Shown: positions 1,850 through 54,025 of the stretch, in pieces
Numbering within the stretch: the stretch's first letter is position 1
Layout of the letters: every line of letters starts with the position of its first letter
From: an uncultured Rickettsiales bacterium
GTDB taxonomy: Bacteria > Pseudomonadota > Alphaproteobacteria > Rickettsiales > SXRF01
DNA length: 64,000 nucleotides
Assembly (NCBI GenBank): GCA_964469525.1
Contig: CAYXYU010000003.1
Location: 33,185 to 97,184, forward strand
Reading direction: 5' to 3'
Notes under the pieces: model-generated
What the model saw: the letters and a program-made list of their open reading frames with translations, nothing else
What the model was told of the DNA's origin: nothing
The model's database searches: none
Made by a program: the position numbers and the translations under genes

Positions 1850-3133
1850 ATGATCAAGAAATTCACTGATGCCTTTACTCCCGTGTCCAGCGTGCTGGTT
1901 TCCAGTAATGTAGGCCAGAATCAGAAGCTTCGGAAACTGCATGAGCAAATGACGTATGAATTGATGAAGGCAAAAGAGAGGTACTTCATCCGTGATAGCA
2001 ATGGCATGGATTTCGGCCTTACCGATTTGCAGCAAAAGATCGTGGAAGCCGCCGATGCCTATGTTTTTCTGCCTATTCCTGAACATATCAAGCAACCCAC
2101 CGCCCCGGTTAATCGCGACTTTTTTCGGGAAATGTTCAAGGCGGCGTCCCTATTTGTAGGAGCTCAGACTGCTGACCCGGAATTGCATTTGGAGAAGCCT
2201 AACGGGCATAGCGAGCGCACGCTGGATGCTCCGCTTAAGCCGATCATCCTCGTGAATAGCGATAAGAAGAGCCGCTGCTGGAAACCGTTTGTGGAGCTGG
2301 CCGAGCATATGCATGCGCTGGGTACGATCAAGCAGAAGCCCGAGAATATCATTCATATGGTTGACGATATCGGTTCGGCTATGGAACTTCTGGCCACGGC
2401 GCATCGCAAAAAGCTTAAGGCAGCCCCAACCCATGCGGGATCACATCATGCGCTGCCAAAACGCCAACGCGAACAGGATACGCATGAAGAGCGCATCCCT
2501 GATTTCAATGTGTGTGTTTTTTGTTCGGCTTCGACGAAGAATCATGAATTAAAAGAAAGTGCCCGTCAGCTAGGCGCCGATATCGCCCGTCAGGGCTGGG
2601 GGTTGATCAGCGGCCTTGGCCGCACCGGTATGATGGGAACGGTGGTGGAGGGTGCGGCGGAGGTTATTAAAAATGAAGGCAAAGGCTGGGTGGGCGGCTC
2701 CAACCTGCCGCGCATCATTAAGATGGAGGGACTGCCGGATTATTATGATAAATTCTGGGAAAAACCGGATATTTACACCCGCATGGAGGTGATGATCGAG
2801 AAATCGCAGGCATTCGTTGTCATGCCGGGCGGTATGGGTACGGTGCAGGAGTTAATGGCATTGTTGCTGCTGAAACATGCGAAGGAGAATGGGAAGCCTT
2901 ACCTAATGCGCGATGATAAATTCGCCAACAAGCCCATTATTCTTGTTAATCATGAAGTTGATCATGATGGTAAACGGGTTAAATTCTGGAAGCCATTGGT
3001 CGATATGGCCAAAAAATTTGGTTTTGAAGATGATATTATTGTTGTGGATTCCATAGATCAGGCCATGCAGCAACTGGAAAACCATCACCGGAGTCATCAA
3101 TTGCCTCGAAAAATACGCAATTTATCCCGTTGA
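1850..3133 (+). CDS. LOG-family protein with a degenerate N-terminal LOG-like domain and an intact C-terminal LOG domain
   Basis: The C-terminal half has VCVFCSAS, GMMG, PGGMGTVQEL and KPIILVN. The N-terminal half repeats ADAYVFLP...PIILVN...WKPFVEL...VDDIGSAM without the PGGxGT motif. Confidence 0.78.
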   Translation: MIKKFTDAFTPVSSVLVSSNVGQNQKLRKLHEQMTYELMKAKERYFIRDSNGMDFGLTDLQQKIVEAADAYVFLPIPEHIKQPTAPVNRDFFREMFKAASLFVGAQTADPELHLEKPNGHSERTLDAPLKPIILVNSDKKSRCWKPFVELAEHMHALGTIKQKPENIIHMVDDIGSAMELLATAHRKKLKAAPTHAGSHHALPKRQREQDTHEERIPDFNVCVFCSASTKNHELKESARQLGADIARQGWGLISGLGRTGMMGTVVEGAAEVIKNEGKGWVGGSNLPRIIKMEGLPDYYDKFWEKPDIYTRMEVMIEKSQAFVVMPGGMGTVQELMALLLLKHAKENGKPYLMRDDKFANKPIILVNHEVDHDGKRVKFWKPLVDMAKKFGFEDDIIVVDSIDQAMQQLENHHRSHQLPRKIRNLSR

Positions 3134-3139
3134 ATTTTA

Positions 3140-3168
3140 TTGACCGAGTCAGGTCAAAGCTCTAAATT
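3140..3168 (+). promoter_or_regulatory. Putative sigma70 promoter of ilvB with a palindromic operator over the -35
   Basis: TTGACC-N17-TAAATT. TTGACC-gagtca-GGTCAA is an inverted repeat. Confidence 0.45.
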
Positions 3169-3197
3169 TACTCCCTTTTCCGCAAAAAGAGCGTGCT

Positions 3198-4973
3198 ATG
3201 AAACCGGCGGTTATGACCAGCCCGAAACAGGAGAGCCATCACGACATCACTGGCGCCGAGGTGATCGTGAAAGCGCTCGTCAATGAGGATATCGATGTGG
3301 TGTTCGGTTATCCGGGCGGCGCGGTGCTGCCGGTGTATGACGCGCTGTTCAAGCAGAACCAGCTACGCCATATCCTGGTGCGCCATGAGCAGGGAGCGAC
3401 GCACGCCGCCGAAGGCTATGCCCGCTCGACCGGCAAGGTCGGCGTGGTGCTGGTCACTTCCGGTCCCGGCGCGACCAATGCCGTGACGGGACTGACCGAC
3501 GCCATGCTCGACTCGATCCCCATCGTCTGCATCACCGGCCAGGTGCCGACACACCTGATCGGCTCCGACGCCTTCCAGGAAGCCGACACTACCGGCATCA
3601 CGCGCAGCTGCACCAAGTATAATTACCTGGTGAAGGATGTAAACGACCTCGCCCGCATCGTACACGAGGCGTTCCATATCGCCCGCACCGGCCGCCCTGG
3701 CCCGGTCGTCATCGACATCCCGAAGAACATTATGAACCAGAAGACAGACTATCTGGGCAAGCAGCCGGTTGACCGCCCGTCCTATCGTCCGCAGACGAAA
3801 CCTGATTTGAAGCAGGTGGAAAAGGCAGTGGCGCTGATGGCGCAAGCGAAGCGCCCGATTTTTTATGTCGGCGGCGGCGTCATTAATTCAGGGACTGTTG
3901 CCTGCGCAGCGCTGCGTGAGCTGGTGCATTTAACCGGTTTTCCCTGCACCACCACGCTGATGGGACTCGGCGCGTTTCCTGGCACGCATAAGCAGTTCGT
4001 CGGCATGCTCGGGATGCATGGCAGCCTGGAGGCCAACATGGGCATGGCGGAATGCGACGTGATGATCAATATAGGCGCGCGCTTCGATGACCGCGTGACC
4101 GGCCGGCTCGACGCGTTTTCCAGAAAATCAAAAAAGATCCATGTCGATATCGACCCCAGCTCAATCAATAAGAACGTGCATGTGCATGTGCCGATTGTTG
4201 GCGATGCAGGTACGGTGATTGAACAGATGATCGTGGCGTGGAAGAAAAAGAATCCGAAGCCAGACATAGGCGAATGGTGGCTCAAAATCGAGGAATGGCG
4301 ATCGAAGAAAAGCTTTTCCTACAAGCAGGGTGACAAGGTCATCAAGCCGCAATACGCACTCGAGCGACTGTATGAGTTGACGAAGGATAAAGATCTCTAT
4401 GCCACCACCGATGTCGGCCAGCATCAGATGTGGGCGGCGCAGTTTTTGAAGTTCGACAAGCCGCACCGCTGGATGACTTCCGGCGGCTTAGGGACCATGG
4501 GCTACGGCATGCCATCCGCCATTGGCGTGCAGATCGCACACCCGGACGATCTGGTGGTATGCGTCACCGGCGAGGCGTCGCTGATGATGAACATTCAGGA
4601 GCTCTCCACCATCGTGCAATACCGCCTGCCGCTGAAGGTGTTCATCCTCAACAACCGCTACATGGGCATGGTGCGCCAGTGGCAGGAGATGTTCCACGGC
4701 TCGCGCTACTCGGAGTCTTACATGGACAGCCTGCCCGATTTTGTGAAATTGGCTGAGGCGTACGGCATGACGGGCCTCAGATGTGAGAAAGTGGCCGACG
4801 TCGATAAGACCATCAAAGAGATGATGGCCATCCAGGGCCCGGTGATCGTCGACATGGTGGTTGACCAGAACGAAAACGTCTACCCGATGATCCCCGCCGG
4901 GGCGGCGCATTATGAGCTTGTCCTTGGGCCGGGGGAAAAAGCGGGCGAGATCAAGACGAAGGATCTGTTGTGA
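3198..4973 (+). CDS. ilvB: Acetolactate synthase large subunit
   Basis: [40 protein letters not shown] and [10 protein letters not shown]. Confidence 0.96.
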
Positions 4974-15022: not shown

Positions 15023-15086
15023 GATGATAAGATGATAGATGATATGAGCGTTATTTTCTGATCTTATCATCTATCATCTTATCATC
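15023..15086. repeat. Perfect 22-bp inverted repeat built of GATGATA(A) units
   Basis: gatgataagatgatagatgata (15023-15044) pairs with tatcatctatcatcttatcatc (15065-15086). Confidence 0.9.
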
Positions 15087-15100
15087 TATTATCTTCTCCA

Positions 15101-16930
15101 ATGCCCAAGGAAAATGAGAAACAGCGCATCTTCAACCGGCGGGCGGTGATTTTCGGCGGCCTGCAGGCGGCGGCCTTTACCGCACTGGCCGGACGGCTCT
15201 ATTACCTCCAGTTTATTAAGGCGGACGAGTACGCTACCCTTTCGGAAAATAATCGAATTAAGCTGCAGCTCATTGCGCCGCAGCGCGGCAACATTGTCGA
15301 TCGCCGCAACCTGCTGATGGCAGCCAATGAGCAGAACTACCGGCTGTTCATCGATTTCAGCTCCCTAAGCCAGTCGGTCTTCCAGGAAACGGTCGATCGG
15401 CTGCAGGCACTGCTGCCGCTGCCCGAGAAGAGATACAGAACGCTGAAGAAAACCCGCGTTTCCTCGGCTTCGATGCCGGAGATGCTGAAGGAGCATTTGA
15501 CCTGGGAGGAGGTGTCGCTGATCGAGCTGCACATGCTGGAGCTGGCCGGAGTGTTCATCGACGTTGGGCAGATTCGACATTACCCTCTGGCCGATCAGGC
15601 GGCCCATCTGATTGGCTATGTCGGTGCGGTATCGGAAAGCGAATTGTCTGCTGATGATCAGCCCCTGATGCGTCTGCCGGATTTCAAGATCGGCAAGAAC
15701 GGCATCGAGAAGATGATGGAATACAAGCTGCGCGGTACCGCCGGTATCCGCCAGATCGAGGTCAATGTGCACGGCGTGCCGGTGCGCGAGGTCGGCAAGA
15801 AGGAGAGCATTCCCGGCGAGACCGTGCGACTTACCGTCGACAGCCGGCTGCAGGCCTATACGGCGGATCTGGTGAAGAATGAGAGCGCCTCGGTGGTAGT
15901 GATGGATGTGCATACCGGCGATATCCTGGCGCTGGTATCGATGCCCGCCTTTCAGCCGGACATCTTCAGCAAGGGCATCACCACCGACTACTGGAAGGAA
16001 CTTTCCACCAACAGCAAGGGACCGCTGCTCAACAAGGCGATCAGCGGCCAGTACCCGCCGGGCTCAACCTTCAAAATGATCGTCGGACTGGCCGGGTTGG
16101 CCGCTGGCGTGATCGCTCCCTTCACGCCGGTGCATTGCCCTGGGCATTTCTATCTCGGTGATCACCGGTTCAATTGCTGGAAGGAAGGCGGGCACGGTAC
16201 CGTTACCTTCCATACGGCCATCGAGCAGTCCTGCGACACATTCTTTTACACTGTAGCTGAGTGGTTGGGGATCGACAGTTTCGCCGGCATGGCGCACCGG
16301 TTTGGACTGGGGCAGACCTATGATCTCGGCATCATGGGGGAGAAGGCAGGAATTATTCCTGACCCGGAATGGAAAATGCGTCGCTACCAGCAGCGCTGGA
16401 CCGGAGGCGACACCATCAACTGCTCTATCGGACAAGGGTATGTGCTGACCACGCCGCTGCAGTTGGCGGTGATGACCTCGCGCATGGTCAATGGTGGCTT
16501 TGCGGTCACGCCGCGGCTGGTAGTGAAGCCCGGTCAGGAGCATCCGGTATTCGAGCCGGTCAAGATCGGCGGGGATTTTCTGGCGTTGAACCGCGCGGCC
16601 ATGGCGGCGGTGGTCAACGATCCCAGCGGCACGGCCTATGGCAAGCGCATACGCGAGCCGCAGTTTGCCATGGGCGGCAAAACCGGCACTTCGCAGGTGC
16701 GCAAGATTCTCCAGCGCGGCATGGACCAGTCGGCATTACCATGGGAGTATCGCCATCATGCGCTGTTTGTGGGCTATGCGCCGGTTGATGCGCCGAAATA
16801 TGCCTGCGCTGTGGTGGTGGAGCATGGCGGCGGGGGTGCCGCGACGGCGGCGCCGGTGGCGCGCGATATCTTGCTGAAACTGCAGCAGCTAGTGGAAAGC
16901 GATCGTCGGGAGAAGGAAGTGTATGGCTGA
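15101..16930 (+). CDS. mrdA: Penicillin-binding protein 2
   Basis: YPPGSTFK (SxxK), SCD and GKTGT motifs; synteny with mreBCD. Confidence 0.95.
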   Translation: MPKENEKQRIFNRRAVIFGGLQAAAFTALAGRLYYLQFIKADEYATLSENNRIKLQLIAPQRGNIVDRRNLLMAANEQNYRLFIDFSSLSQSVFQETVDRLQALLPLPEKRYRTLKKTRVSSASMPEMLKEHLTWEEVSLIELHMLELAGVFIDVGQIRHYPLADQAAHLIGYVGAVSESELSADDQPLMRLPDFKIGKNGIEKMMEYKLRGTAGIRQIEVNVHGVPVREVGKKESIPGETVRLTVDSRLQAYTADLVKNESASVVVMDVHTGDILALVSMPAFQPDIFSKGITTDYWKELSTNSKGPLLNKAISGQYPPGSTFKMIVGLAGLAAGVIAPFTPVHCPGHFYLGDHRFNCWKEGGHGTVTFHTAIEQSCDTFFYTVAEWLGIDSFAGMAHRFGLGQTYDLGIMGEKAGIIPDPEWKMRRYQQRWTGGDTINCSIGQGYVLTTPLQLAVMTSRMVNGGFAVTPRLVVKPGQEHPVFEPVKIGGDFLALNRAAMAAVVNDPSGTAYGKRIREPQFAMGGKTGTSQVRKILQRGMDQSALPWEYRHHALFVGYAPVDAPKYACAVVVEHGGGGAATAAPVARDILLKLQQLVESDRREKEVYG

Positions 16931-25566: not shown

Positions 25567-25662
25567 CGTCATCACCCGAATCGGCGTAGCCGATTTCTAG
25601 GGTGATCCAGTTTGAATATAAACCTGATGGCTTAGAATTCCTGCGGAATTCAGGCCGTGACA
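25567..25662. repeat. Inverted doublet of CGTC-tagged REP-like units (family I, doublet A)
   Basis: CGTC-ATCACCC-GAATCGGC-gta-GCCGATTTC-TA-GGGTGAT-CCAG, then a reverse degenerate copy at 25623-25662. Confidence 0.88.
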
Positions 25663-25673
25663 AAGGAGAGGAT

Positions 25674-25976
25674 ATGCGCTGGGAATGTATCGCAGTCTAT
25701 ATTATGACGAACATGCGAAATGGCACGCTCTATATCGGCGTCACCTCGAATCTCATCCGCAGAATCTTCGAACATAAAAGCAATGCCGTCGATGGCTTCA
25801 CCAAGAAGTACGGTCTGCACACGCTGGTGTATTACGAGCTCTTCGACAGCATGGAAGCCGCTATCCATCGGGAAAAGCGCCTCAAAAAATATACCCGGGA
25901 AGCCAAGCTGGCGCTTATTGAGAACATGAATCCCGAATGGAAGGATCTGTATGACTCCATAGCCGTCATGGCCTGA
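25674..25976 (+). CDS. Small stand-alone GIY-YIG nuclease (100 aa)
   Basis: AVYIMTN...TLYIGVTSNLIRRIFEH...YYE...AIHREKRLK...NPEWKDL; RBS aaaggagagg before the ATG at 25674. Confidence 0.9.
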   Translation: MRWECIAVYIMTNMRNGTLYIGVTSNLIRRIFEHKSNAVDGFTKKYGLHTLVYYELFDSMEAAIHREKRLKKYTREAKLALIENMNPEWKDLYDSIAVMA

Positions 25977-25978
25977 CT

Positions 25979-26076
25979 CGTCATCCCCTGAATTTGCGCA
26001 GCAAATTCTAAGGGGATCCAGTAGCAAAGAAAGGCTGGATGGCCTTAGAATCGCTTTCGCGATTCAGGCCATGACG
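25979..26076. repeat. Inverted doublet of CGTC-tagged REP-like units (family I, doublet B)
   Basis: CGTC-ATCCCCT-GAATTTGC-gca-GCAAATTC-TA-AGGGGAT-CCAG, a 13-nt spacer, then CTGG-ATGGCCT-TA-GAATCGC-tttc-GCGATTC-AGGCCAT-GACG. Confidence 0.92.
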
Positions 26077-36927: not shown

Positions 36928-37112
36928 GCATGCACCTCCATCTCTTATTATTATAGCGTAAAAAAGTGGCCGAATCAGCAGAAATCCGCCGGCAAAACCG
37001 ATCGAAAGAGGCCAAAAAGCCGGGCTTTTTAGGCAAATTCCGGAGGCGATACGGTCTTTTTCGCTAAACATATTTACATTGCCGCCCATATGGAATATCA
37101 CCATCGCCTTAC

Positions 37113-37188
<76 letters not shown>

Positions 37189-48931: not shown

Positions 48932-49030
48932 CGTCATCACCCGAATCGCGTCAGCGATTCTAGGGTGATCCAGTTTTTATATAGACTGGATTCCCCTAGA
49001 ATTTTGCTGTGCAAAATTCGGGGAATGACG
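48932..49030. repeat. Family I CGTC REP-like doublet C
   Basis: CGTC-ATCACCC-GAATCGC-gtca-GCGATTC-TA-GGGTGAT-CCAG, a 12-nt spacer, then CTGG-ATTCCCC-TA-GAATTTTGC-tgt-GCAAAATTC-GGGGAAT-GACG. Confidence 0.92.
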
Positions 49031-49065: not shown

Positions 49066-49626
49066 ATGAGCTGGCAGAAGAATCTCCCCAACTACCTGAC
49101 CTATTTCCGCATCGGCGTCATTCCCGCGCTGATTGTCGTTGTGTTTTTCTTCGAGGGAAGGTGGAGCGACTACGCGGCGGCGGCGCTGTTCCTGCTGGCT
49201 TCCGTCACCGACTGGCTCGATGGCTATATTGCCCGCCTGCTCAAGGCGCAGTCAAACCTGGGCCGGTTTCTCGACCCGATCGCCGACAAGCTGCTGGTGG
49301 CTACGGCGCTGCTGCTGCTGGTCTATAACGGCCGCGCCGACCTGCTGCCCGCCATCGCCATCGTTTGCCGTGAAATCCTGGTGTCTGGCCTACGCGAGTT
49401 CCTGGCTGAGCTGCGCGTCAGCATGCCGGTCTCCAAACTCGCCAAGGTCAAGACGGCGGCACAGATGGTGGCGATCCTGTTCCTGCTGCTCGGACCTGCA
49501 GGATTCTACGGCATACCGACGCAGCCCATCGGCAACTGGCTGCTGTGGGTGGCGGCGCTGTTGACGCTGATTACCGGCTACGCCTACCTCAAGACCGGCC
49601 TCAAGCACATGACCGAATCGGCGTAG
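49066..49626 (+). CDS. pgsA: CDP-diacylglycerol--glycerol-3-phosphate phosphatidyltransferase
   Basis: LPNYLT, TDWLDGYIAR, GRFLDPIADK and REILVSGLRE. Confidence 0.95.
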   Translation: MSWQKNLPNYLTYFRIGVIPALIVVVFFFEGRWSDYAAAALFLLASVTDWLDGYIARLLKAQSNLGRFLDPIADKLLVATALLLLVYNGRADLLPAIAIVCREILVSGLREFLAELRVSMPVSKLAKVKTAAQMVAILFLLLGPAGFYGIPTQPIGNWLLWVAALLTLITGYAYLKTGLKHMTESA

Positions 49627-49723
49627 GCTTTCCCGCGTTTTTCTACGTTTCCTATCGGTTTCCGAGCGTTTTTAACACGTTTCGGTAGTGTTTGTATGCG
49701 TTTTACATCGTTTAAACACGCTT
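49627..49723. repeat. Helically phased (C)GTTT tract, 10 units, about 10.4-bp period
   Basis: The G preceding each T-run lies at 49627, 637, 647, 658, 668, 679, 690, 700, 710 and 720. Confidence 0.8.
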
Positions 49724-49882
49724 GTAAGACACGGGAATAGAGGCAATCCAGAACCTTACCCTTATTCACGCGGCAAAAGACGTGACATTCTGTGACATGC
49801 CTTCAATACTTTCCTCCACCAGATTCCCTGCACCACCTCATTTTAAAGCCAGCGTGAATGGCCGGGAAGGGGGGATTTAGCC

Positions 49883-49987
49883 CGTCATCGCCCGAACTGC
49901 CAAAGGCAATTCTAGGACGATCCAACTTCAACGGATGGAGATGGATTCCCCTAGAATTTTTGCTCGCGCAAAAATTCGGGGATGACG
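49883..49987. repeat. Family I CGTC REP-like doublet D
   Basis: CGTC-ATCGCCC-GAACTGCC-aaa-GGCAATTC-TA-GGACGAT-CCAA ... TGG-ATTCCCC-TA-GAATTTTTGC-tcgc-GCAAAAATTC-GGGGAT-GACG. Confidence 0.88.
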
Positions 49988-50011
49988 AAATACCGCGCAC
50001 GATTAAAATCC

Positions 50012-50317
50012 CTAGTTCGTCACCCATTGGCCGGGGACGAAATGCCAGCGGCCGTCCACCTGCTCCCAATGCTCGGGTTCCCACTTCGCATTGACGCGGG
50101 TTTCCAGCCAGCGGCCTTCCACCCAGACATGCTGGTTGCCGTCCCAGGACCAGTAGCCGGGCGCCCAGACAAAGCCGGTGCGGGCGGGCGGCACGGTTTC
50201 GCTGCGCGGCGGCGGCGGCGGGGTGTCGACATAGATTTCAGCGACGGCCTGGCCCAAGGCAGGCGCGGCAACGGTAGCAAAAATCAGCGCGTAGGTTGCC
50301 AGTGAGCGTGTATGCAT
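50012..50317 (-). CDS. Secreted YXWGXW (WXXGXW) repeat protein
   Basis: Signal peptide, polyproline run, VWAPGYWSW, VWVEGRW and WEPEHW; RBS aaggag. Confidence 0.85.
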   Translation of the reverse strand: MHTRSLATYALIFATVAAPALGQAVAEIYVDTPPPPPRSETVPPARTGFVWAPGYWSWDGNQHVWVEGRWLETRVNAKWEPEHWEQVDGRWHFVPGQWVTN

Positions 50318-53130: not shown

Positions 53131-53948
53131 TGTCGCGCGGCGGGACTCTCTCCGGCGGTCCATGGCGAATCATAGCGCCGGAAAATCAGGTACAGGCCGA
53201 GCAGGAGCATTGGCAGGGATAAGAGCTGACCCATGGTCGCGCCGCCCCACAGGAAGCCGAGAAATGCGTCCGGCTCACGGAAACATTCGGCGACGATGCG
53301 CGAAACCGCGTAGCCGGAGAGAAATACGCCGCCCAGCATCAGCGGCTTGTCACGGGCGCGGGTGCGCTTGAGCAAAAGCATCAGTAGGGCGAACAGCAGG
53401 ATGCCTTCCATCCCCGCTTCGTAGAGCTGGCTGGGGTGCCGGGGCAGCGGCCCGCCATGCGGAAACACGATGCCCCACGGGACATCAGTCACGCGGCCAT
53501 AAAGCTCGCCGTTGATGAAATTGGCGATGCGGCCTAAAAACAGGCCGATGGGGGCGACGCAGGCCAGCACGTCGATCACCGGCGAAAACGGCACTTTGTG
53601 CCGCTGTGCGAAAATATAAAACGCAAGGATGAAGCCGAGCATGCCGCCATGGAACGACATGCCGCCTTCCCACAGCTGCAGGATCTGCACGGGATGGGCC
53701 AGGTAGTAGGCGGGCTTGTAGAACAGCACGTAGCCGAGCCGGCCGCCGAGTACGATGCCGAGCACCGCCCACAGCACCATGTCATCAAGCGCCTTGGGGG
53801 TCAGGCCCGGAATATGGCGCCGCCGGTTCTCCTGCATGAACAGCCACCAGCCGATCAGAATGCCTGCAATATAGGCCAGCGAGTACCAGCGGATGGCCAG
53901 CGGCCCAAGCTGCAATGCGACCGGATCGATGGCGGGGAAGGGGAGCAT
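53127..53948 (-). CDS. lgt: Prolipoprotein diacylglyceryl transferase
   Basis: GGRLGYVLFY, GGMSFHGG, GRIANFINGELYGR and RHPSQLYEA. Confidence 0.97.
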   Translation of the reverse strand: MLPFPAIDPVALQLGPLAIRWYSLAYIAGILIGWWLFMQENRRRHIPGLTPKALDDMVLWAVLGIVLGGRLGYVLFYKPAYYLAHPVQILQLWEGGMSFHGGMLGFILAFYIFAQRHKVPFSPVIDVLACVAPIGLFLGRIANFINGELYGRVTDVPWGIVFPHGGPLPRHPSQLYEAGMEGILLFALLMLLLKRTRARDKPLMLGGVFLSGYAVSRIVAECFREPDAFLGFLWGGATMGQLLSLPMLLLGLYLIFRRYDSPWTAGESPAARQ

Positions 53949-54025
53949 AGGCTTTAGGCATTAGGCATTAGGGGCGAGGGAAGCAAGATTTTTTTTCTCA
54001 TCCCTAAAGCCTAATGCCTCATCCC
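53948..54025. repeat. Inverted 7-mer tandem repeats (TAGGCAT units)
   Basis: taggctt|taggcat|taggcat|taggggc ... ccctaaag|cctaatg|cctcatc; similar tgcctaatgcct at window bases 1-12. Confidence 0.75.

Follow-up and report, generated by a model that had tools for sequence, protein, structure and literature searches.

What kind of element is formed by ten short sequence cores of identical orientation that follow each other at intervals of one helical turn between two convergent genes? This question is raised by the region immediately downstream of pgsA in the window, i.e., the whole stretch of 64,000 nucleotides analysed here. Its host is an uncultured alphaproteobacterium of activated sludge and wastewater, and the runs bearing the sequence are sludge, wastewater and biofilm metagenomes. 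The nearest genome representatives are alphaproteobacterial MAGs with a PgsA identity of at most 71%.

A helically phased array behind pgsA

The array fills the left part of a 385-bp gap that separates the stop codon of pgsA (49624-49626, plus strand), the last base of which is overlapped by the first unit, from the stop codon of a gene for a WXXGXW-repeat protein (Table 1). Beyond this gene the minus strand carries ilvE, pgeF, a methyltransferase gene and lgt. The original prediction had placed the array in a noncoding gap between REP doublets; these doublets are palindromic MITE/REP-like elements of about 100 bp. Genes of the par, rep or helicase type are not found among the neighbours (cysA, pgsA, WXXGXW, ilvE, pgeF, methyltransferase, lgt), and inspection of the neighbourhood genes revealed no transposase or integrase near the array. 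The neighbours are housekeeping genes, and the neighbourhood examined does not contain a gene for a candidate binding protein or response regulator. No intrinsic terminator is predicted between 48800 and 50500, and a tRNA search yielded nothing in the array region. As GC skew does not switch at the gap, a replication origin or terminus at this place was rejected.

Table 1 Features of the gap between pgsA and the WXXGXW gene, and the two flanking genes, in left-to-right order.
Feature	Coordinates	Strand	Remarks
pgsA	49066-49626	+	CDP-alcohol phosphatidyltransferase, 186 aa, PF01066; left neighbour, stop codon abuts array
Array of ten helically phased units, core C-G-t-T-T	49626-49723	+	Based on sequence, motif positions, periodicity and predicted curvature
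Short block conserved in both alleles	49762-49769	+	TTATTCAC(G) in the window, TGATTCAC(A) in L085
Direct repeat GTGACAT-TCT-GTGACAT, 10-bp spacing	49782-49798	+	Based on sequence; copies at 49782-49788 and 49792-49798
C-rich, G-poor stretch	49799-49855	+	Both alleles; contains TCCCTGC, common to three variants
Block GAATGGCCGGGAAGGG	49856-49871	+	16/16 identical in L085; directly before the MITE
MITE/REP-like palindromic element	49883-49988		Context only, not part of the array; fold z-score -3.97
WXXGXW-repeat secreted protein gene	50012-50317	-	101 aa as called; right neighbour, convergent with pgsA

The units start at 49626, 49636, 49646, 49656, 49667, 49678, 49689, 49699, 49709 and 49719, and their G(T/C)TT cores at 49627, 49637, 49647, 49658, 49668, 49679, 49690, 49700, 49710 and 49720, with spacings of 10, 10, 11, 10, 11, 11, 10, 10 and 10 bp. 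Positions and spacings agree exactly with those originally read from the letters. The sequence GTTT is exact in eight of the ten cores (49637-49710), which form one unbroken chain with 10/11-bp steps, and CGTTT is exact in six; the two outermost units read GCTT. The longest chain of this kind comprises eight GTTT on the plus strand and two on the minus strand. In 300 block shuffles that kept local composition, the longest chain had two members in 267 cases, three in five and four in one. A linear fit through the ten core positions yields a 10.42-bp period, and no residual exceeds 0.8 bp. When periodicity was checked, as had been proposed with the original prediction, the power for TT dinucleotides in 105-bp windows reached 23.1 at a period of 10.3, the top value of the 64 kb, where the next-best TT site has 9.3. 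The array is thus non-random, far beyond chance. The wider search for similar phasing that had also been proposed was run on the 64-kb window and about 0.54 Mb of pgsA loci from relatives. It did not yield a second CG.TT chain of four or more units or a copy of the array elsewhere in the window, and there is therefore no regulon-like signal.

Self-alignment of the ten units shows where the information resides. C is present at position 1 in eight units, G at position 2 in all ten, T at position 3 in seven, and T at positions 4 and 5 in all ten. With both alleles described below pooled, the information amounts to 0.96 bits for C1, 1.76 for G2, 0.52 for t3 and 1.48 each for T4 and T5, and to about zero elsewhere. 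All cores share one orientation, and the T-runs measure 2-5 nt, several of them just 3 nt and one reading TTTAAA. The spacers are mutually unrelated, their mean pairwise identity of 0.24 being that of random sequence. With information confined to five positions and with random spacers, the array is neither an iteron nor a minisatellite, and it was not reported by Tandem Repeats Finder because its units are too dissimilar.

The array in a second allele and in wider relatives

An exact-protein look-up in Logan recovered contigs of the same strain and of one variant, L085, and conservation of the array is accordingly judged from this single second allele. In the flanking genes L085 is 91-100% identical to the window per 100 bp (about 97%), and the WXXGXW protein is identical in both. 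Identity is 84-87% in the intergenic region upstream of pgsA and drops to only 62-70%, with several indels, in the gap (49627-50011 in the window, 3307-3668 in L085). This excess divergence may stem from allelic replacement by recombination or from unusually fast change.

In this diverged background the array matches unit for unit. L085 has the same number of units, again gives the logo C-G-t-T-T and has a period of 10.51 bp. Units 2 and 10 lie 83 bp apart in either allele, and by our reading of the alignment a 10+11-bp pair of the window corresponds to a 9+12-bp pair in L085. In the right half of the L085 array the T-runs are shortened to TT, and CG is kept. By our count on the alignment, the alleles agree in 80% of motif positions and in about 57% of spacer positions, a modest difference. 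The periodicity power of L085 is 16.9, a value retained by 0.6-1% of 2,000 simulated copies carrying 30-34% random substitutions, in a simulation that is too generous should the common ancestor of the two alleles have been recent and more perfect.

Comparison of the alleles also bears on a coding explanation. A period of 10.3 nt would correspond to the 3.5 residues of an amphipathic helix, encoded by an antisense ORF of 61 aa (49584-49769) or by a plus-strand ORF (49545-49688). ORFs are indeed present on both strands, and the plus-strand T-runs would give a phenylalanine about every 3.5 residues. However, both ORFs begin inside pgsA in another frame, and neither is conserved in L085. The antisense ORF, which the original prediction had named as the case that would speak against a DNA element, fails here: it has no counterpart in L085, as 1-nt indels break every frame, leaving L085 ORFs unrelated to those of the window in length and sequence. 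A small-protein gene was rejected on this basis, and we regard a coding origin of the periodicity as next to inconceivable.

A role at the RNA level was considered as well. Within the 3' untranslated region of pgsA or an antisense transcript, CGUUU(C) or AAACG might be bound by an oligomeric RNA-binding protein or serve as a Rho entry site or a sponge. Units ending in UC (five of ten in the window, seven of nine in L085) would agree with this, as would the following C-rich, G-poor stretch (38 C and 18 G over 49740-49855), the lack of a predicted intrinsic terminator after pgsA and a 151-nt contig spanning 49684-49834 from a run labelled RNA-Seq. That run is, however, also labelled metagenomic, and pgsA and the gap are equally thinly covered, so the contig may represent DNA; the three metatranscriptomes of the study that includes the genome do not cover the organism. 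The spacing equals the helical repeat of DNA, which no RNA-binding mode requires. Rho sites are G-poor, whereas G is the most conserved base of the array, which contains 23 C and 21 G. The array folds no better than its shuffles (z-score -0.97), and Rfam searches at gathering and permissive thresholds returned nothing relevant and no match near the gathering score. An RNA-level element is therefore very unlikely. The array is neither coding nor a known RNA, and periods of 10.42 and 10.51 bp, which are those of B-DNA, fit duplex DNA better than RNA or coding sequence.

The C-rich, G-poor stretch behind the array would suit a Rho-utilisation region acting on read-through from pgsA. Taken with the missing intrinsic terminator, it suggests Rho-dependent termination of pgsA beyond the array. 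A small RNA at 49799-49880 was rejected, with no covariation or compensatory pairs and just a weak consensus fold.

Conservation downstream of pgsA, raised as a check by the original prediction, holds for L085. Our protein search with PgsA gave no match between 76% and 100% identity. Relatives with PgsA of at most 75% identity keep the order cysA-pgsA followed by convergent ilvE-pgeF-methyltransferase (lgt), and lack the WXXGXW gene, any comparable gap and the array; none of 80 loci of GTDB representatives (PgsA at most 71% identical) contains a phased array. The element is therefore young and lineage-specific. Homologues of the WXXGXW protein are at most 53% identical and reside in unrelated contexts. 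One of them (in L441) lies beside genes for BON- and CsbD-domain proteins, which typically belong to the general stress regulon of alphaproteobacteria. By analogy with these neighbours, the WXXGXW gene of the window may be stress-related.

The right-hand part of the gap and the origin of the array

To the right of the array, several short features are shared by both alleles. The TTATTCAC block resembles a DnaA box in eight of nine positions, which may be chance. The GTGACAT direct repeat, present as originally noticed, is 16/17 identical in L085, and its phase relative to the array shifts by only about 0.12 turn despite a 10-bp insertion between them in that allele. From the repeat, a weak sigma-70-like match (GTGACA, 17 nt, AATACT; nine of twelve positions) can be read 55 bp downstream of the array. 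Its -10 element is not conserved in L085, and no promoter common to both alleles was found in the convergent gap; inspection by eye for EcfG, sigma-32 and sigma-54 consensus promoters was likewise negative. A Pho box was also considered for the GTGACAT pair, which reads ATGTCAC-AGA-ATGTCAC on the minus strand, and was rejected, as the spacing is 10 instead of 11 bp and a conserved -10 is missing. In the related PhoP of Streptomyces a 10-nt unit strongly lowers binding (PMC2275107).

The GAATGGCCGGGAAGGG block is where similarity ends on the right in each of three sequence contexts, and it may belong to the adjoining MITE or be targeted by it. Further copies of this element of about 100 bp reside at 48932-49030, 25567-25660 and 25979-26076, and L085 carries half a copy in opposite orientation. 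The third context became apparent in X14, X15 and X18, runs with the L085-type strain, where a second contig of similar depth is about 84% identical to 49830-49873 (7 differences in 44 nt). This contig (2,766 nt in X14) has TGACAT...TCCCTGC before the match and unrelated sequence after it. The right-hand module is thus present in a third context, in a variant absent from runs with the window strain. Elsewhere in the window (25567-26076), two copies of the MITE/REP-like element bracket a plus-strand gene for a GIY-YIG nuclease-domain protein of 100 aa (25674-25976).

These observations raise the possibility that the array is a relic, either the end of a one-time mobile element, now decaying, whose subterminal sites served a transposase or recombinase, or an ancient tandem duplication of 10/11 bp. 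It would then have arrived with a lineage-specific insertion that brought the WXXGXW gene and the MITEs. In agreement with such a history, gap and WXXGXW gene are missing from relatives that keep the surrounding synteny on both sides (cysA-pgsA, ilvE-pgeF-lgt), the GC content of the gap is 43-48% compared with 58.6% for the window, MITEs flank it, the end point of the right-hand module is identical to the base in three contexts, and ends of the IS607 type bear helically phased short motifs (PMC6188088). However, decay of a tandem repeat should erode core and spacer equally, and here the cores are nearly perfect and the spacers random. The periodicity of L085 also exceeds the neutral expectation of the decay simulation, and neither a transposase nor an integrase lies nearby. 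Furthermore, the array is single-copy: in three metagenomes that hold the genome at 5-27x depth, no second contig of at least 80% similarity was found. BLAST of the gap against plasmid and phage collections gave no match, and a metagenome scan for GTGRCATTCTGTGACAT returned at least 120 matches, none homologous to the gap and hence due to chance. An assignment as the end of a mobile element (IS607-like or MITE) was not adopted in view of the missing transposase, the single copy and the negative plasmid and phage search. Taken together, we consider a relic rather unlikely.

Predicted curvature and putative protein binding

For a phased element at the DNA level, two readings were weighed, bending of the DNA by the T-tracts and binding of a protein to the cores. 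The bending anticipated by the original prediction is borne out in models. In the Bolshoy wedge model the array lies in the top 0.1% of the window (99.9th percentile) and ranks third in the 64 kb, with 53 degrees compared with a median of 11 and a ratio of end-to-end distance to contour length of 0.645 compared with a median of 0.98; only the ranking is to be trusted, and the angles are approximate. A model with AA wedges only gave a similar result. With several same-strand T-runs at the helical period and a predicted curvature well above background, the array resembles curved phased A/T-tract DNA in these two respects.

The two sites with a higher predicted curvature than the array are both promoter regions. 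The highest predicted curvature in the window belongs to a second phased array at 36950-37030, with about eight A-tracts at a period of 11.0 bp, which lies between a divergent Usg-like gene and the promoter (TTTACA, 17 nt, TATCAC) of a tRNA-Lys(CTT) gene at 37113-37188. Its tracts are not flanked by conserved bases, and it resembles the curved DNA classically seen upstream of stable-RNA promoters. Second in predicted curvature is a site (3100-3200, about 3170) directly upstream of a gene for a TPP enzyme of the acetolactate synthase type that starts at 3198.

Could intrinsic curvature suffice, without a dedicated sequence-specific protein? The array could then activate an unannotated promoter in the gap from upstream or wrap RNA polymerase there, or form a curved 3' flank that aids termination or the handling of supercoils between the convergent genes. 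The third-highest predicted curvature of the window, the promoter location of the two sites above it and the weak sigma-70-like match downstream all agree with this explanation, and since the T-tracts alone predict strong curvature, a protein is not strictly needed. On the other hand, conservation of C1 and G2 equals or exceeds that of the T-run in both alleles, a property that a pure A/T-tract bending element does not require and that the tRNA-Lys array does not share. Several T-runs are short or interrupted, as described above, the -10 of the putative promoter is not conserved in L085, and no structured or known RNA follows the array. Curved DNA upstream of stable-RNA promoters is exemplified by hisR and rrnB P1. 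Such regions resemble the array in having A/T-tracts every 10-11 bp and high predicted curvature; they differ in that their tracts have no conserved flanks and lie directly upstream of a promoter, while the array, with its invariant G and near-invariant C, lies downstream of a gene. Curvature alone is therefore a possible but doubtful explanation.

A protein-binding array is favoured over bending alone by the combination of a helical period in both alleles, a single orientation, five informative bases per turn and the retention of CG. Our preferred reading, which is tentative and falls somewhat short of an even chance, is that a small DNA-binding protein oligomerises head to tail on the units, which all lie on one face of the helix, and that bending by the T-tracts reinforces this arrangement. 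The ten 5'-CGtTT-3' cores, one per turn, would provide a pad for a small helix-turn-helix or winged-helix protein. Several molecules of it would bind cooperatively and head to tail, in the mode of OmpR/PhoB-type response regulators, BldC/Xis-like proteins or IS607 TnpA, and the in-phase T-tracts would pre-bend about 100 bp of DNA and favour its wrapping. The array probably acts together with the adjoining conserved, in-phase GTGACAT repeat. As to its role, it might control or insulate transcription at the 3' end of pgsA, where read-through meets the convergent ilvE-WXXGXW operon, or else influence a promoter close to the GTGACAT pair that escaped detection. Against a protein stand the absence of a binder gene nearby and of a second array, and the location at a convergent site without a promoter conserved in both alleles. 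Of the original interpretation, a phased DNA-level element is supported by helical period, predicted curvature and retention in L085, and the dedicated architectural or protein-loading site keeps the rank of a proposal.

A more specific version of protein binding, which we deem decidedly unlikely, holds that about ten small winged-helix protomers load on CGtTT, one per turn, as a hitherto undescribed chromosomal nucleoprotein filament which, together with the GTGACAT repeat, switches transcription at the 3' end of pgsA. An example of its effect would be antisense or read-through control of phosphatidylglycerol synthesis. Should this be true, the array would be an unusually long, promoter-independent operator of new specificity.

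Which known systems come closest? Random spacers are typical of arrays of transcription-factor half-sites, unlike iterons. OmpR/PhoB-type operators (Streptomyces PhoP DRus, E. coli pho boxes, ArcA, OmpR) share with the array direct repeats with a conserved core of 5-7 informative bases per 10-11-bp unit, a variable remainder, one orientation and one helix face. They comprise 2-6 units (up to 8 reported) on or next to the -35 element, while the array consists of ten units in a convergent gap without a conserved promoter. We know of no regulator that recognises CGTTT. PhoP of Streptomyces uses 11-nt direct repeat units, at most six per complex operator, and fills poorly conserved units cooperatively; up to eight units have been reported upstream of phoRP in another Streptomyces species (PMC2275107). 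BldC binds AATT-N4-C direct repeats head to tail with few base contacts (PMC5859096). Sites of the BldC/Xis type resemble the array in that an AT-tract and one or two G/C contacts recur in each repeat of about 10 bp, in that repeat number varies and in strong DNA bending, which for the array is predicted (PMC5859096). BldC sites have 2-4 repeats with the AATT-N4-C core and reside at actinomycete promoters, whereas neither a known promoter nor an att site coincides with the array. TnpA of IS1535 starts its assembly at four 9-bp direct motifs that are helically phased and then spreads, with about 10 bp covered by each unit (PMC6188088). Ends of the IS607 family thus share with the array short direct motifs one turn apart, and the cooperative IS607 filament covers about 70 bp (PMC6188088); they have about four units and are accompanied by tnpA/tnpB, while the array has ten units, neither gene and a single copy. 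None of the three families can be claimed as the actual binder.

The gyrase sites and partition centromeres brought up in the original prediction, by contrast, found no support, as no par or rep genes are near and the units are not iterons. Strong gyrase sites (REP-BIME) carry arms with a period of 10.5 bp on either side of a cleavage core; the array shows periodicity, and the REP-like elements are separate from it. R1 parC is a type II partition centromere with direct repeats. Iterons and centromeres resemble the array in having many direct repeats at 10-11 bp, in some viral cases (L230, L232) even with a CGTTT core, and differ in that whole units are near-identical and lie beside rep, helicase, par or packaging genes, neither of which applies here. 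A partition centromere or replication iterons were rejected because of the spacer identity of 0.24 and the housekeeping neighbours.

A scan of viral contigs for four phased CGTTT units returned more than 230 arrays. Most of these, and every one of the longest, proved to be true tandem repeats whose spacers are largely conserved; spacer identity in the longest, top-listed arrays is 0.5-1.0 compared with 0.24 in the array behind pgsA. Random spacers occur in two viral arrays (L311, L322); both are located within ORFs, and chance could account for them. Long phased arrays with a CGTTT core were seen in the phage contigs L232 (4192-4330) and L230 (3042-3125). One of them comprises 13 units as a 21-bp alternating iteron between the genes for the terminase large subunit and the portal protein; the other has at least eight units inside an ORF just upstream of a gene for a DnaB-type helicase and resembles an origin inside an initiator gene.

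Short direct repeats spaced by one turn are a signature of cooperative assemblies on one face of the helix, such as response regulators, Xis/BldC-like proteins, transposase filaments and centromere binders. Ten five-base cores with random spacers, alone between convergent housekeeping genes and still phased in a strongly diverged allele, fit no catalogued case. If a protein partner exists, it would have a new recognition specificity and might offer a route to control or insulate the end of an essential gene of phospholipid synthesis. If there is none, the locus is a clean natural example of DNA predicted to be strongly curved outside a promoter. The practical weight is limited, with one locus in one uncultured lineage.

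The window contains further short repeats close to gene starts. At 53948-53972, directly upstream of the start of lgt, the motif TAGGCAT is repeated in tandem (7 bp, 3.6 copies), and an inverted partial copy (CCTAATGCCT) follows about 60 bp beyond. Tandem repeats of 7-8 bp (GATGATAA / ATCTTATC, a 15-bp unit in 2.3 copies) are found at 15023-15095, in the short gap that precedes a gene starting at 15101.
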